Positions 34,601-40,600 of a stretch of DNA of 64,000 nucleotides are shown here, one piece after another. This DNA is from Desulfatiglandales bacterium (lineage in GTDB: Bacteria; Desulfobacterota; DSM-4660; Desulfatiglandales; Desulfatiglandaceae): NCBI GenBank assembly GCA_963666345.1, contig OY762721.1, forward strand, positions 1,184,001-1,248,000, in the 5' to 3' direction. Position 1 is the stretch's first letter, and each line of letters starts with the position of its first letter. Position numbers: made by a program.

Positions 34601-37600
34601 TCGGCAGAAGACCGGCCCTTTCCACGATCTGTCCCACGATATCTTCCCATTCGATTGCCATTATATGGACGCCCCGCACCCCCTCAAGCTCCTTCAGTCT
34701 TTCTATGGTCTCCACACAGATCTTGAGGCCCTCTTCCTTCTGCCTGTCTTTGGGCACACCGTCCATCCGTCTTATTATCTTATCCGGGATATCCATGCCG
34801 GCCACCCTGTTTTTCATATATCTTGCCATGCCGGCCGACTTAAGTGGAGTAACCCCGCCCAGGATGGCGACCTTTTCGGTCAGACCCCTGTCTTTTGCCA
34901 TTTCAAACCATCTTTCAAAGCGCTCAAGGTTATATATGCACTGGGTCTGGATAAAATCAGCTCCTGCGGCAATCTTTTTTGCAAGCCTTACGATCCTGAA
35001 CTCCGGCGGATCCGCAAAGGGATTGGCGGCGGCCCCTATGAAGGCCTTAACCGGCTCGCTTAAAGACTCGCCCCCCAGGATGACGCCCTTATCCCTCATA
35101 TCCCTGATCACCTGAATAAACTGGGTGGAATCGATATCAAACACACCCAGGGCCTGCCCCTGGTTTCCGAAGCTCTGGTGGTCTCCTGAAAGACAGAGTA
35201 TGTTATTGATCCCCAGGGCGGAGGCACCCAGGACATCCGACTGAAGCGCGATACGGTTCCTGTCCCGCATTACCATCTGAAGCACCGGATCAAGCCCTGC
35301 CTCTTTAAGTAACACGCATGCGGCAAGACTCGACATCCTTACTATGGCGGTCTGGTTGTCCGTGACGTTTACCGCGTCAATCGATCCCCTTAGCATGTCT
35401 GCCTTTTTGAGGACAACCCCCGGATCACTACCTTTGGGAGGCCCGCATTCGGCCGTAACCGCGAAAGCCCCCTTTTCCAGAACTCTTTTAAGCATCCCTG
35501 TATTATTCACTTTTGTTGATCCTCCCTCACGATCTTTCTCGGGCCGCCCCCCTGTTTCTTAGACCAGTCCTTTGGAGGATAGATCTTCTCCAGTCTTTCA
35601 AGGGCATCAAATTTCGCCAGTCTGTCTATTATGAGCTGCCACGCACATGGTATATCAGGGTTTACCTCGCATTTCCCGTCGACCGAACCACCGCACGGCC
35701 CGTTGAGCAGGTGTTTTGAGCACCGGGCAAGAGGGCATATTCCGCCGAAATCAAAAAGCATGCAGTCTCCGCATCCGAGGCAGTTTTCGACCCAGAGGCC
35801 CCGTTCCTTTGTCTCGCCGATGAACTCCGTATTAAGGGCCGGGATAACCGGCATATCATCGTACATCTCAGCCACGGCCTGAACCCCGGCCCCGCAGGCA
35901 AGGGAGAGAATCGCGTCATATTCCTCAATAACCCTGTCCAGCTGAAGCACGAACTCATTCACGCACTGCCTTTCCAGGGTCATCTCCTTGATCATGCGTT
36001 CCTCGCCGTTCATCTTGTCTGCCATTCGAAGGACCGAGGCCAGCATGGCGGTCTCCTTTTCACCCCCTGCCGCACATTCCGCCACGCAGGAAGCACACCC
36101 CAAGGCCAGTACCCTCTTATAAGGGGCCATCATGGCCCTGATCTCTTCAATAGGCTTCTGTTCTGCAGTTATCATCTCTTCTGTCTCCTCTCGAAATATA
36201 ACCTTTTGGAATTACCCGCGATCTTCCCCTCTCCGGTTAAAGACGGGAGATACGCCAAGCCTTGAAGCGGTCTCCATAAGCTCATGCAAATGCTCTGAAA
36301 GGGTTTTTGTCTTTTCTTTATTTCCAATGATTATCCCGATCCTCTCCGATTCAAGACCTATACCTGCGATGACGGCCTTTGTCCTTTCCACTCTCTTTAC
36401 GGCGCGTCTGTTCCCCTCGAAATAGCGGCACGCCCCTTCCGGACAGGTGATAACATAAGCCGCGTCCGCGAACTCTTCCAATGCCCTCAAAAGATGAACA
36501 GGCTCAAGCCTGCCGCTGCAGGCAAGAGGAAAAAGCCGGACATGAGTCCCATATTCTTTCTCAAGGGCCTGTCTTTCCTCTTCGCTGCTGCCTGGGACAT
36601 TTCTGCAATAAAAGAGGGCCACCCTGGCCTTCGGTGATTCCTTCATCTTGATGATAATCCTTTCGCCCTGGGAGTTGACCTTTCATGGAAGACAGGGAGA
36701 CCCTGCAATCCGGGCACACCGGTCAGGTTGAAACTTCCGGAGGTATTTCATTCAGGGGAATGATACGGATCAGAACACGTATATTTGATGGCTGTCAGGA
36801 TTCTTTCCAAAGCAGGTGATATCATCCACCTTATTCAGTACGGGACCCTTGGTCAGGGCATAAAGTGTACGCTCCACCCCGATGCCTCCTCCAAAGGTCT
36901 CAGGGAAAGTAGGCATGCCCTGTTTGTCCTTTTTGGCGGTCATAAGCAGAAACGGCCCGTACCCGCCCAGTTCATCGATATTTCTGATATTGCCTTCATA
37001 TATTACGGGCCTGGAGGGAATAATATTGTTATCCAGCAAACGCTCAACAATCGCCTCATGGATCCATTCCCTCACCGCGCCTGAAAGAATCTCAATCGCG
37101 GGGGTCTGCTCCCCGGTATCCCGCATTATACTCTTGGCGCATATGTCATAGTTATAGATCATGTCAGAGGTAAGCTCAGACAGAGACACCTTTCCTTCAG
37201 GCCTCAGATAGGGGTAAACCAGGTCGTAGTTTTCCCTCAGCAGTCCGGTGATCCAGAAAAACTGATCCGCCAAATCCTCCCCGAGCCTTGTCTCATATCG
37301 TCTTCCATACTTCCTTTTTGCTTCATCAGCCCTGAATCTGGGAAACGGCCGGCTGGGGACCTCAAGGGCCACCCCAAGTGTTTTCAGATCCTCCTCGTTT
37401 TTCTCTACAAGCCGGGTAACGCTGTGGATGATGAGCCGCTCGAACAGATCCATCGCCCTTTCCATATCCTCGGCCAGGATCTTTTTGACCCTCTCCGGTT
37501 CCTTCAGATACATCTCGAGATCGATTCCCCTGTTTCTCCTCACCTCAAGGTCCATCTGGCTGAAATCTATAAGGTACCTGCCGCGCTGAGCCCGATCAGG

Positions 37601-40600
37601 GCTTTCCATTTCAAGCCTGATATTGGGGGAATCCACGAATATTCCCTTGATCCTCGGATTGTGACAGGCAAGAAATTTGGAATATATCATGCTGTGGGTC
37701 ATAACGTAGAGCTGCCCCTTGTAATGGATGCTCGGGACATATTCCACGTCATGGGCTAGAGGGTCCGTTATCTCACTTATCTGAACCCTCTCCATATTGA
37801 AGAGCCCTTCATCCGCAAGGAACTGGTGCATGGCATTTACAAAAGTGGTCCTTAGCGATAAGGCCGCGTAAAGGACATCACCCGTCCACTTGTTGTAGTA
37901 ATACTTGTCCAGATATTCCTCCAGGCTTGAACCTGCCTCTGTAAGGGCGGCCTGAAAACCGAACAGGCTCTGACCTATGGCGGTCATGGTCTCATCTTTC
38001 ATAATTGCCGAAATCTCCTCTGATAAGTTCACGCAACCGGCGCCAGCCGATGGCCCGGAAGCAATCATTCCCATCCGTCCGGAAATCAGATATTTCCGAA
38101 CGGATGTCTGTTAAAGTTTTCCCAGATATCTATCAAGTTCAAACTGACTCACATGAGTCCTGTAATCATCCCATTCTATCTTCTTGTTTTCTATGAACTT
38201 ATTGAACACATGCTCTCCAAGCACCTTTTTTACCAGCTCGCTCTTTTCCGTCTCAATGATGGATGCGTAAAGATTTCCCGGAAGATCCGAGATCCCGTGG
38301 GCCTTTCTTTCGGCAGGGTTCATCTCGAAGATATCCTCTTCAATAGGCTCCGGAAGTTCATATCCCTTTTCTATTCCTTCAAGACCCGCCCCCAGCATCA
38401 ACGCAAAGGCCAGGTATGGGTTACACGCCGGATCAGGCGACCTGAATTCCATCCTTGTGGCCGTCTCTTTGCCCGGCTTGTACATGGGCACCCTTATCAT
38501 CGCGGACCTGTTTCTCCTTGCCCACGACACGTATACAGGTGCCTCGTAACCCGGCACAAGCCTTTTGTATGAGTTTACCCACTGGTTGGTGATGGAAGTA
38601 ATTTCCGGGGCATGCCTTAACAGGCCTGCGATATAGCATTTTGCCATCTCAGACAGATTATATTTGTCATCCGGGTCATAAAAGGCATTCCTGCCTCCCT
38701 TGAAAAGCGATTGATGCACATGCATCCCGCTCCCGTTTTCTCCGAATACAGGTTTTGGCATGAAAGTGGCGTACATACCCTGGTGCATTGCCGCCTCCTT
38801 GACCACCATCCTGTAAGTCATTGTGGTATCCGCCATTCTGAGCGCCTCGTCATATCTGAGGTCGATCTCATGCTGACTGGGTGCCACCTCATGATGGCTG
38901 TATTCAACCTGAATTCCCATAGATTGCAGGGAAAAGATGATCTCTCGCCTTAAGTCACTGCCCAGATCAAGAGGCCGGGCGTCAAAATACCCCCCCTTGT
39001 CGGTCATTTCAGTGGAATGATCATCTTTAAAACAGAAAAATTCAAGTTCAGGCCCTGTATAAAATGTATAGCCGTCTGCGGAGACCTTCTTGAGAAGCCT
39101 TTTCAGTACATATCTCGGGTCCCCCTCGTAGTGAGTCCCGTCAGGGTTCAATATATCGCAGAACATTCTTGCCACGGGTCTTTCATCACTCCTCCAGGGC
39201 AGAAGCTGGAAGGTTTCAGGATCCGGCTTCGCTATCATGTCACTTTCCTCAATCCTGGCGAAACCCTCGATGGAGGAACCGTCAAAACCCATCCCCTCGG
39301 TAAGCCCCTCTTCCAGTTCAGAGGGAGTAACAGCGAAGCTTTTAAGAAAACCGAGCACGTCGGTAAACCAGAACTGGATGAAACTGACATCCCGTTCCTT
39401 TACTTCTTTCATTACATCTTCCCTACTTTTGCAGTTCATGATTTCATCTCCTTAAACCTGTTATGGTATAATGCCTCTATCGGCCATATCTGTCTCACTA
39501 ACAAAGCAATCATTATGCCAAACCCGAAAAGGCCGGTTCAATAAAGCTCCCCGCATCAATCTGCGGGCCGCCCGGGCAAACACGGATAGAGGCCTCTATT
39601 ACATGCAGGCAATACGCTATCTTCCCGCACCAACCGCCTGCTTGAACATGCCTTTTTTCATACAAGCATATATCATATGGGGCACCCGCACAAGGATATA
39701 CACGGGAGGGCCGGGTAGCTATATAAAGAGATATAAATCAAGGCGAGTGCGGTTTGCAAGGCAAGGGTTTTGTTTTGTCTTCATGTAATCGTAAGTGCAT
39801 GCCTGCCTCCAATTCTAATTTCATACAATTTTGTAATAAAAATTGCCTCATTAACACAATTTTGTACTTTACGCCCTTCCTATTTGTACCGCCCCCCAAC
39901 CAGCCCGGCAATTACCGTTTCCCGATACCTCTATCTTTTTTTCGCACAAGCGCAGGTGCCGGCGCTCTTTTTTCCGGCCTTATCTCACAAAAAATACCAC
40001 AGGAAAATGCAGTGGCCGCAGACAGGGCTTTCTTTCACAGTGCCTTGTCAGCTAATGTAACGCCCGCAAAAGCCCTTGGATACGGCCACTTTTCCGTCAA
40101 GTATAGAGAAGGCCGGAGAAATGAGTGCCGGTGCCGGAGCGTACCTGCTATAAATGGGCAAGAAAGACGTGAAACAGCTCCCCATTCGGACTTTCGACCC
40201 ACTGAATCCCTGTACATCTGAGTCCTCATGCCCGGTCAATATGCAAAGAGGTTGTAAAAAGGGCCTGTTTCTTGCAGAATAGAGGTGTTTTTAAAAAAAA
40301 GGACCTTGATAAAAAAGACATGAATCATAAAATCCCCAATTTAGTGCGGATTTTTATATCATGGGAATTACCTCCCGATTAGGGAATAAACACATTAATC
40401 CTTGACCCTTTGGGTACCTGGATTATCTTTCCCGAATCAGCCGTACAAGGACTTATTGTGAAAAGTATCCGGTGAATCGATAATGGATTGGAAAAACAGG
40501 GTATATTGCGGCTCCGTCGCTAAAGAGCATGTCGGCAGGCCGGTGCTTCTTATGGGTTGGATTGACGCCGTCCGTGACCATGGAAATCTGCTCTTTATCC

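Follow-up and report, generated by a model that had tools for sequence, protein, structure and literature searches.

What is a free-standing class IIb aminoacyl-tRNA synthetase (aaRS) core doing beside the gene for glutamine synthetase (GS)? The question is raised by a 410-aa protein, here called the target, encoded in a 64,000-nt stretch of a Desulfatiglandales genome (the window; positions count along it unless stated otherwise). By sequence, fold, and tree, the target is an enlarged, long-branched bacterial offshoot of archaeal-type asparagine synthetase A (AS-AR), and its family is a divergent branch of an already known kind of enzyme. We consider it most likely (probability roughly 55%) to be a nitrogen-regulated aspartate-ammonia ligase that makes asparagine.

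The target is a class IIb core without an anticodon-binding domain

The full open reading frame (ORF) spans 36770 to 38074 on the reverse strand (434 aa). The conserved start is an ATG at 38002, with GAGGAG 9 nt upstream, giving a gene of 36770 to 38002 and a 410-aa product. Pfam reported tRNA-synt_2 alone (residues 32 to 401; 39.4 bits), and the expected motifs are present (motif 3 GGGIGVER at 371 to 378, SPNIRLE, and RYLIDFSQMDLE). No anticodon-binding domain (tRNA_anti-codon, OB-fold) was detected in the target by Pfam or in its AF2 model, nor in a neighboring ORF. These results agree with the preliminary description of a 410-aa free-standing core. The AF2 model built from a 42-row alignment reached a pLDDT of 90.8 and a pTM of 0.90; the earlier model had a pLDDT of 72.9. 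Relative to AS-AR, the target carries a two-helix N-terminal extension (a helical hairpin of 30 to 40 aa) and five insertions (residues ~155 to 175, 262 to 285, 290 to 303, 324 to 340, and 355 to 362).

The family nests within the AS-AR radiation

The best NCBIfam match of the target was NF005054, "asparagine synthetase A" (136.5 bits; cut-off 309), and NF005052 gave 65.6 bits (cut-off 368). The AS-AR equivalog cut-off was thus not reached, which counts against an asparagine-synthetase reading. Six family representatives scored 99 to 147 bits, and 25 shorter relatives scored 188 to 398 bits, 13 of them passing an AS-AR cut-off. A family profile matched the AS-AR structures 1nnh (E = 2.6e-21) and 3p8t (E = 2.8e-19) in the PDB. 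The top Foldseek matches of the model were likewise AS-AR entries (3rex, 3reu, 3rl6, 1nnh, and 3p8t; E = 2e-20 to 2e-19; TM 0.79 to 0.82 over the target), with archaeal AspRS ranking after them. In VIA structural alignments with AS-AR, 285 to 290 of ~290 residues were superposed (Z ~30; rmsd 2.3 to 2.5; 27 to 29% identity), and model residues 30 to 408 align to the whole AS-AR chain.

Comparison of 8 family members with 11 AS-AR proteins revealed 27 columns invariant in all rows. The class IIb positions for ATP, Mg, and amino acid are invariant (R129, E131, F147, Q149, D151, D286, E304, S307, R311, G371 to R378, K109, and D80). The family also keeps the residues by which AS-AR can be told from AsnRS (D80, M105, I106, K109, S125, Q149, D151, W250, R256, and S307), among which K109, Q149, and D151 are AspRS-type states; AsnRS has G, M, and E there. 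Weighing against an asparagine-synthetase reading, however, several otherwise conserved positions differ between the family and AS-AR (H143Y, E146D, H108S, P290K, and R381Y), and the family's insertions carry invariant residues of their own.

In a quick maximum-likelihood search (IQ-TREE; 45 rows; SH-aLRT support only), the family was monophyletic (support of 100) and nested within the NF005054-type AS-AR radiation (27-row clade; support of 98), on a long stem. The radiation including the family was sister to AsnRS (separating branch, 97 to 100). The family stem measures 1.4 changes per site, and the crown above it evolves slowly, a pattern compatible with functional change.

The genome encodes other synthetases and other routes to asparagine

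Five other tRNA-synt_2 genes are present in the genome: two for AspRS, one each for LysRS and AsnRS, and a 344-aa LysRS-related EpmA-like gene. As described earlier, the target is distinct from all of these, both as a separate gene and in the tree, which places it far from the LysRS/EpmA-like pair. A role as EpmA/PoxA was rejected: neither EpmA model (TIGR00462 or NF006828) matched the target at E ≤ 0.01, and the EpmA-like gene of the genome groups with LysRS.

Redundancy counts against an asparagine-synthetase reading, since the genome already encodes AsnA (268 bits; a separate, true asnA gene at contig positions 2424565 to 2425308), AsnB (310 bits), AsnRS, and AspRS-GatC/GatAB. Across 174 genomes of the order, AsnA occurred in 33 of 63 target carriers versus 44 of 111 noncarriers, showing no complementing pattern, and an AsnB-like gene was found in 54 of the 63 carriers. 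Only three carriers had neither (G004, G006, and G008; 87 to 90% complete), and in G004 what may be part of an AsnB gene lies at the end of a contig.

The target lies downstream of the sole GS gene and a sigma-54-type element

Directly upstream of the target lies glnA (38111 to 39439, reverse strand), encoding a type I GS of 442 aa with Gln-synt_C (447 bits) and Gln-synt_N domains. Its product passes the GlnA equivalog cut-off (TIGR00653; 549 versus 429 bits) and is the only match to Gln-synt_C (PF00120) in the 4.16-Mb genome; the previous label of "GlnA2-like homolog" is therefore wrong. The 108-nt spacer between the two genes contains a 15-bp hairpin with no U-tail (38072 to 38106, reverse strand). 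A 111-nt stretch covering the spacer folds at −42 kcal/mol (z = −3.2; none of 200 shuffled sequences did as well), and a scan for terminator-like sites reported none between the two genes.

A sigma-54-type −24/−12 element, TGGCATAATGATTGCT (39505 to 39520, reverse strand), lies 65 nt before the start of glnA; the pattern matched twice in the window versus 0.16 matches expected. Two copies of the dyad ACAATTTTGT (39825 to 39834 and 39856 to 39865), ~305 to 345 nt upstream of this element, are candidate enhancer sites. The pattern ACAWWWWTGT had three matches in the window (0.67 expected), the third upstream of the other sigma-54-like element (24544 to 24559). Were the target co-transcribed with the sole GS gene from this putative promoter, it would belong to the ammonium-assimilation regulon, as we propose.

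Linkage to nitrogen genes recurs in relatives

Among the 67 of 80 species loci that were assessable (enough upstream DNA), 52 have a same-strand GS gene directly upstream of the target gene, 16 of them with a gap of at most 15 nt. GS linkage is therefore stronger than the preliminary description had claimed. The adjoining GS belongs to type I in Desulfobacterota; in Pirellulales-like loci it belongs to type III, and the gene order there is PII, GS type III, target, GltB, and GltD. Downstream of the target, a GltB-type gene occurs in 15 of the 80 species loci. Overall, family members associate with genes for GS, GOGAT, PII, and Amt, supporting the suggested tie to nitrogen assimilation.

Linkage to GS was looser in the metagenome set: GS was at −1 in only 22 of 80 loci (upstream sequence of at least 1.4 kb was available for 61), and the 20 most distant loci (L095 to L114) had no GS at this position. 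The best clue to the product is one absent from the earlier account. Of the 58 metagenome loci that could be assessed, 13 have an asnS gene (NF003037; 688 bits) immediately after the target in the same orientation (gaps of 15 to 237 nt). In one locus, L126, the target is followed by AsnB.

The family is widespread and variously labeled

A database search with the target returned 1,018 proteins at E ≤ 0.001. The best 120 of these are 77 to 100% identical to it, as reported before, and the near-uniform length also stood, with 117 rather than 116 of them exactly 410 aa. Members 61 to 70% identical were again found in other Desulfobacterota and Pirellulales metagenome-assembled genomes. The hosts are bacterial (Desulfobacterota, Pirellulales, and possibly Spirochaetota), and the nearest short relatives are archaeal. 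A family member was present in 320 of 185,579 species genomes scanned and in at least 362 metagenome stretches. Within its own order, the gene is patchy (63 of 174 genomes) and at times decayed (G089, G044, G012, and G137), which is a caveat on the proposed role. Identity across the same loci is 61 to 81% for the target and 67 to 83% for GlnA.

Databases label the family as hypothetical, "aspartyl/asparaginyl-tRNA synthetase," or "amino acid--tRNA ligase-related protein." Metabolic reconstructions therefore either overlook a likely route to asparagine or list a spurious aaRS, in a family widespread in uncultured anaerobes.

Proposed function and alternatives

We propose that the target is a tRNA-independent, adenylate-forming amidoligase of the AS-AR lineage; the missing anticodon domain and grouping with AS-AR support the earlier suggestion of a free-standing, tRNA-independent enzyme. 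ATP-Mg and L-aspartate would bind in the class IIb active site to form β-aspartyl-AMP, and attack by ammonia on this adenylate would yield L-asparagine and AMP. If so, the glnA operon would hold a third ammonia-fixing enzyme beside GS and GOGAT.

Given the long stem, the acceptor may have changed, or the role may be tied to GS. One less likely alternative is that the target still activates aspartate but that the five insertions created a new acceptor site, so that aspartyl would pass to a small amine other than ammonia or to a protein lysine, for example in GS or PII, in the manner of EpmA and EF-P. The stem itself would fit, as would the strongly conserved family-specific loops beside Mg-binding D286 and E304 (YPYL, YNYD, and K290). 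So would the redundancy with AsnA and AsnB encoded by the same genomes and the pairing with two unrelated types of GS, frequently ≤15 nt away. Precedents for aaRS paralogues that gained new acceptors are given in PMC9437257. However, every AS-AR-specific signature residue is kept, and no gene for a carrier protein or acceptor is conserved alongside the target except GS. The linkage to asnS (13 loci) and to AsnB (one locus) agrees with asparagine being the product. The lack of fused forms among longer proteins also argues, weakly, against a new acceptor.

In a more speculative and less probable version, the burst of change on the stem (the five insertions, the new N-terminal hairpin, and the altered motif 2 residues) would have converted an asparagine synthetase to an enzyme that activates aspartate and works on or with GS. 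Such an enzyme could bind the GS oligomer, either to receive ammonia or to signal nitrogen status, or it could attach aspartate to a protein or amine within the nitrogen network. If true, an aaRS paralogue would have taken on a new role in nitrogen control, with independent recruitment beside GS type I and GS type III.

It is unlikely that the chief role of the target is to regulate or scaffold GS, sensing aspartate, asparagine, or ATP and modulating GS as HisZ does HisG. Its tight, repeated adjacency to both GS types and a conservation nearly equal to that of GlnA would suit such a partner, and the N-terminal hairpin of the model could serve as a docking surface. The adenylation machinery, by contrast, is invariant family-wide (motif 2 R129 and E131, motif 3 R378, and Mg ligands D286 and E304), whereas HisZ is described in PMC9437257 as having no adenylation activity, and many members lie away from GS. 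Finally, a true aaRS charging tRNA(Asp) or tRNA(Asn) is highly improbable: the core and motifs are intact and AspRS-GatC, GatA, and GatB are transcribed divergently within the window, but the OB-fold is missing, AspRS/AsnRS equivalogs score at most 26.8 bits against cut-offs of 343 to 368 (TIGR00458, 26.8 versus 368.4), the family nests in a tRNA-independent clade, and the GatCAB neighborhood recurs rarely (species loci L021, L031, L045, and L062; metagenome loci L117, L133, and L138).

The target offers a clean case of an aaRS-derived enzyme remodeled after transfer from archaea to bacteria. With a long stem below a slow crown, its family is well suited to asking whether remodeling of this kind alters chemistry or only regulation and partners.

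Comparison with known systems

Two aaRS catalytic-core paralogues that lack an anticodon domain and function outside translation are presented in PMC9437257: EpmA/PoxA, a LysRS paralogue that lysylates EF-P, and HisZ, a HisRS paralogue that is a regulatory subunit of HisG. Unlike HisZ, the target family has invariant adenylation residues, and its members often lie away from the putative partner, GS. Archaeal/eukaryotic-type AspRS and AsnRS (PDB 1B8A/3NEL and 1X54) share the core fold (Z = 30.6 to 31.7, tied with AS-AR), and family-profile residues 172 to 326 align to AspRS; these enzymes have the OB-fold anticodon-binding domain that the target lacks, and the asnS model gave no match to the target at E ≤ 0.01. 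Bacterial AsnA (PF03590; Escherichia coli 11AS) catalyzes the reaction proposed for the target and shares its class II-like fold (VIA Z = 25.8; 296 residues aligned; 17% identity), with no PF03590 match in the target at E ≤ 0.01.

The closest system is AS-AR ("AsnRS2") of Pyrococcus (PDB 3P8T, 3REU, 3REX, 3RL6, and 1NNH; NF005054/NF005052), likewise a class IIb core without an anticodon domain, which converts Asp, NH3, and ATP to Asn, AMP, and PPi and is not known to charge tRNA. This activity has support in the PDB entry titles and in PMC9437257. Compared with the compact AS-AR (~294 to 320 aa), the target is longer, at 410 aa, through its N-terminal extension and five insertions, and, unlike archaeal AS-AR, it sits in bacteria, in glnA or asnS operons.

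A conserved class IIb synthetase core without an anticodon-binding domain

The minus-strand open reading frame at 36770..38074 encodes 434 aa; from its conserved start codon, an ATG at 38002 (MKDETM...; GAGGAG 9 nt upstream), the protein is 410 aa long (36770-38002). Exactly this length was found in 117 of the 120 best database homologues, which are 77-100% identical and head a set of 1018 proteins at E<=0.001. The sole Pfam domain is tRNA-synt_2 (residues 32-401; 39.4 bits), Pfam detected no OB-fold, and the motifs quoted in the preliminary description are present in the translation. 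Open reading frame, homologues, domain content and motifs thus confirm that description of the gene, which is real and conserved. No fused or longer form occurred among 6253 candidates, a count that is weak evidence. Five other genes in the genome carry tRNA-synt_2, and their placing in a tree identifies them as two AspRS, LysRS, AsnRS and a 344-aa LysRS-related EpmA-like gene. Domain content and model scores ruled out both a plain housekeeping aminoacyl-tRNA synthetase and EpmA as readings of the 410-aa protein.

We found no literature description of this protein and its enlarged bacterial homologues (here, the family). In the passages of PMC9437257 available to us, the synthetase paralogues include AS-A/AS-AR, EpmA and HisZ, none like this branch. 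Databases list homologues as "hypothetical protein," "aspartyl/asparaginyl-tRNA synthetase" or "amino acid--tRNA ligase-related protein." In the ESM Atlas, the nearest cluster bears the label "putative Asparagine synthetase A"; clusters of 410/414 aa that include Spirochaetota members are labeled "ligase-related."

The family is nested among archaeal-type asparagine synthetases

The top NCBIfam match was NF005054, archaeal-type "asparagine synthetase A" (AS-AR; 136.5 bits, far under the cut-off of 309), and AspRS models reached 26.8 bits at most. Among 1.84 billion cluster representatives, a search returned only about six full-length family clusters (P0123-P0129; 287-470 bits; 45-58% identical), beyond which scores fell to about 95 bits for proteins of 300 aa. 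All 25 of these short relatives that were scanned scored 188-398 bits on the AS-AR models (13 passed a cut-off), and those with names are archaeal "asparagine synthetase" (Methanomethylicota, Bathyarchaeota, Methanomicrobia); six family representatives scored 99-147 bits. A family profile matched only AS-AR (1nnh, 2.6e-21; 3p8t, 2.8e-19) and archaeal AspRS (1.7e-11) in the PDB. The AF2 model, built from a 42-row alignment, was confident (pLDDT 90.8; pTM 0.90) with dips at residues 81-90 (TDPL loop) and 131-140 (motif-2 loop). Foldseek ranked AS-AR first for this model (E 2e-20 to 2e-19; TM 0.79-0.82 over the target), followed by archaeal AspRS and AsnRS.

Descent was addressed with a quick maximum-likelihood tree of 45 rows (12 family, 23 AS-AR-like, 6 AsnRS and 2 AspRS sequences, with LysRS and the EpmA-like gene as outgroup; 0 rows dropped). 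The family formed a single clade (SH-aLRT 100), its stem 1.4 changes per site long, and it was nested in a 27-row clade of NF005054-type AS-AR (support 98); AsnRS was the sister of all AS-AR together. Internal branches of the family are short (0.1-0.7). This is the pattern of a burst of change and then strong constraint.

Residues invariant in the family and in 11 aligned AS-AR sequences are T79, D80, P81, S104, M105, K109, motif 2 (S125, R129, E131), F147, Q149, D151, E153, R256, Y259, D286, E304, S307, G308, R311 and motif 3 (G371-R378); in class IIb enzymes, these columns are the ATP, Mg and amino-acid positions. At sites that tell AS-AR from AsnRS, the family agrees with AS-AR (D80, M105, I106, K109, S125, Q149, D151, W250, R256, S307). 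Because K109, Q149 and D151 are of the AspRS type, the AsnRS residues there being G, M and E, the active site points to aspartate, not asparagine, as the probable substrate.

The gene follows glutamine synthetase in the window and in many relatives

Directly upstream on the minus strand is glnA (38111-39439), which matches TIGR00653 at 549 bits versus a cut-off of 429. The preliminary description had called this glutamine synthetase (GS) "GlnA2-like"; it is instead the housekeeping enzyme and the sole Gln-synt_C match in the genome. The minus-strand spacer between glnA and the 410-aa gene (38003-38110; 108 nt) holds a 15-bp hairpin with no U-tail, and a scan listed no terminator-like site between the two genes. 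A sigma-54-type element, TGGCATAATGATTGCT, was matched 65 nt upstream of glnA; the sigma-54 pattern has two matches in the window versus 0.16 expected by chance. Two ACAATTTTGT dyads lie about 305-345 nt further upstream of the element. Passages of the Desulfovibrio vulgaris sigma-54 regulome paper available to us do not mention asparagine. No Rfam family was found over 28000-47000 at E<=0.1. The 1,043-nt stretch from glnA to aspS-gatC (39440-40482), in which the element and dyads lie, is likewise without an Rfam match, and it includes a plus-strand 155-aa open reading frame (39754-40221) without a Pfam family. One metatranscriptome contained short contigs inside glnA and the 410-aa gene (95-97% identical). 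They come from a relative and may represent carried-over DNA; none of these short contigs bridged the junction.

Downstream on the minus strand, after a 123-nt spacer (36647-36769), lie FlpD/MvhD (36212-36646), MetV-like and MetF genes (34578-36175), two Fer4 plus Glu_synthase proteins (31688-34568) and a GATase plus GXGXG fusion (28588-31233). This split glutamate synthase (GOGAT) set (28588-36646) is unusual in its 881-aa fusion and its two Fer4 plus Glu_synthase paralogues, one of them weakly Glu_synthase-like (69.6 bits); it is joined to FlpD/MvhD, the MetV-like gene and MetF in a block kept in 7-10 related loci. Divergent from glnA, the plus strand encodes a 723-aa AspRS-GatC fusion, GatA and GatB (40483-45662), the fusion scoring 937 bits on NF009460, under the cut-off of 1379. 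Since another AspRS and an AsnRS are encoded in the genome as well, direct and tRNA-dependent asparagine routes both seem to be present. The AspRS-GatC/GatAB neighborhood recurs in few relatives, and we set it aside as a local feature.

The species genomes gave 320 stretches coding for a relative, of which the best 80 were compared. Upstream sequence of 1.4 kb or more was present in 67 of these loci, and in 52 of the 67 the family gene is immediately preceded, in the same orientation, by a glnA gene (at least 60% identity), at gaps of 1-574 nt (<=15 nt in 16). Seven of the other 15 also had an adjoining GS gene: GS on the opposite strand (L087, L091), GS downstream (L076), a partial glnA (L082), a GS 39% identical (L088), and the order PII, GS type III, family gene, GltB, GltD (L090, L093). 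Three loci (L031, L045, L046) have the order second GS (38-39% identical), GlnE adenylyltransferase, glnA (80-82% identical), family gene; GS is thus encoded twice in such genomes, and the family gene comes after the copy that does not adjoin GlnE's partner. Downstream content was variable in the best 80 of 320: GltB-type genes in 15, and FlpD in 10, of which 7 continue through MetV, MetF and split GOGAT to the GATase-GXGXG gene. HisH/HisF, GAF-ANTAR and convergent housekeeping genes also occurred downstream, and further nitrogen genes nearby were GlmS, GlnE, Amt, PII, NrpR, CarA, CTP synthase and ArgG.

A metagenome set of 80 loci was ranked by likeness to a distant family member. GS of type I or III stood immediately before the gene, in the same orientation, in 22 of the 80 (61 have at least 1.4 kb upstream), and a recurring order was Amt, PII, GS type III, family gene, GltB, GltD. 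Downstream sequence of 1.4 kb or more was present in 58 loci; in 13 of them the next gene in the same orientation encodes AsnRS (asnS; NF003037, 688 bits versus a cut-off of 414; gaps 15-237 nt). In L126 the next gene is AsnB. The 20 most distant loci (L095-L114), a clade 45-53% identical to the window's protein, had none of these flanking genes, GS, GOGAT and asnS included; their neighbors vary, among them GMP synthase, a ThrA-like aspartokinase-homoserine dehydrogenase, a GHMP kinase, FGE-sulfatase and MarC.

A nitrogen-metabolism supercluster

The second sigma-54-type element, TGGCACTACACTTGCA (24544-24559, minus strand), has a ACAATTTTGT dyad at 24637-24646, about 80 nt upstream. Behind it on the minus strand are hisH (23754-24389), hisF (22979-23770), carA (21805-22971) and carB (18549-21803); since all are glutamine-using enzymes, they and glnA are probably members of one nitrogen regulon. 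Between the two minus-strand nitrogen operons, the plus strand encodes PII (25314-25652) and, after it, a uridylyltransferase/HD protein resembling GlnD (25887-28481). The window from 18.5 to 46 kb is a nitrogen-metabolism supercluster.

Proposed function and redundancy

We propose that the protein is a nitrogen-regulated aspartate-ammonia ligase, a functional reading to which we give slightly better than even odds (about 0.55). The enzyme would convert aspartate, ammonia and ATP to asparagine, and it would be switched together with the ammonium-assimilation regulon. Asparagine synthesis is supported jointly by the gene's links to ammonia assimilation (two unrelated types of GS, PII, Amt, GOGAT), by its links to asparagine use (asnS, AsnB) and by the aspartate-type AS-AR active site.

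Instead of plain AsnA activity, the protein may have a changed acceptor or a GS-linked role. The genome already has a bacterial-type AsnA (268 bits), an AsnB (310 bits) plus a second AsnB-like gene, AsnRS and AspRS-GatC/GatAB, and the long stem and insertions of the family also leave room for such a change, as does its patchy and partly decayed distribution across the order. Among 174 genomes of at least 80% completeness, the gene was carried by 63 (37 of 93 high-quality genomes; 34 of 85 genera), AsnA by 77, AsnB-like genes (E<=1e-40) by 140 and AsnRS by 160. A main asparagine synthetase would be expected in genomes without AsnA or AsnB; in these 174 it was not so, with AsnA in 33 of 63 carriers and 44 of 111 noncarriers, and AsnB in 54 of 63 carriers. 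Only four carriers were without both. Three of these candidate "sole synthetase" genomes (G004, G006, G008) are incomplete, G008 having an AsnB-like gene, though a weaker one, and G004 what may be an AsnB fragment where a contig ends; in the fourth, G044, the family gene is a fragment with stop codons TGA and TAG. The gene is split into two adjacent frames in the 2-contig genome G089 and truncated to 278 profile positions in the 1-contig genome G012, and a second copy in G137 carries TGA. Because AsnA and AsnB are common in carriers and some copies are split or truncated, the gene provides an accessory function that is usually redundant.

Comparison with known asparagine synthetases

By VIA-align, AS-AR, archaeal AspRS and AsnRS were tied against the model (Z about 30-32), and E. 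coli AsnA reached Z 25.8. The whole AS-AR chain aligned to the model (285-290 residues; rmsd 2.3-2.5; 27-29% identity). AS-AR is without the family's N-terminal two-helix hairpin (helices 4-22 and 27-40 in the AF2 model) and its insertions at about 155-175, 262-285, 290-303, 324-340 and 355-362. Family-invariant residues in insertions include Y263, P264, S279, Y283-D286, G347-L352 and F398-D403, and the family departs from AS-AR at H143Y, E146D, H108S, P290K, R381Y and P72R. The description that fits the protein best is that of an enlarged, bacterial offshoot of AS-AR-type asparagine synthetase, coencoded with GS or AsnRS.
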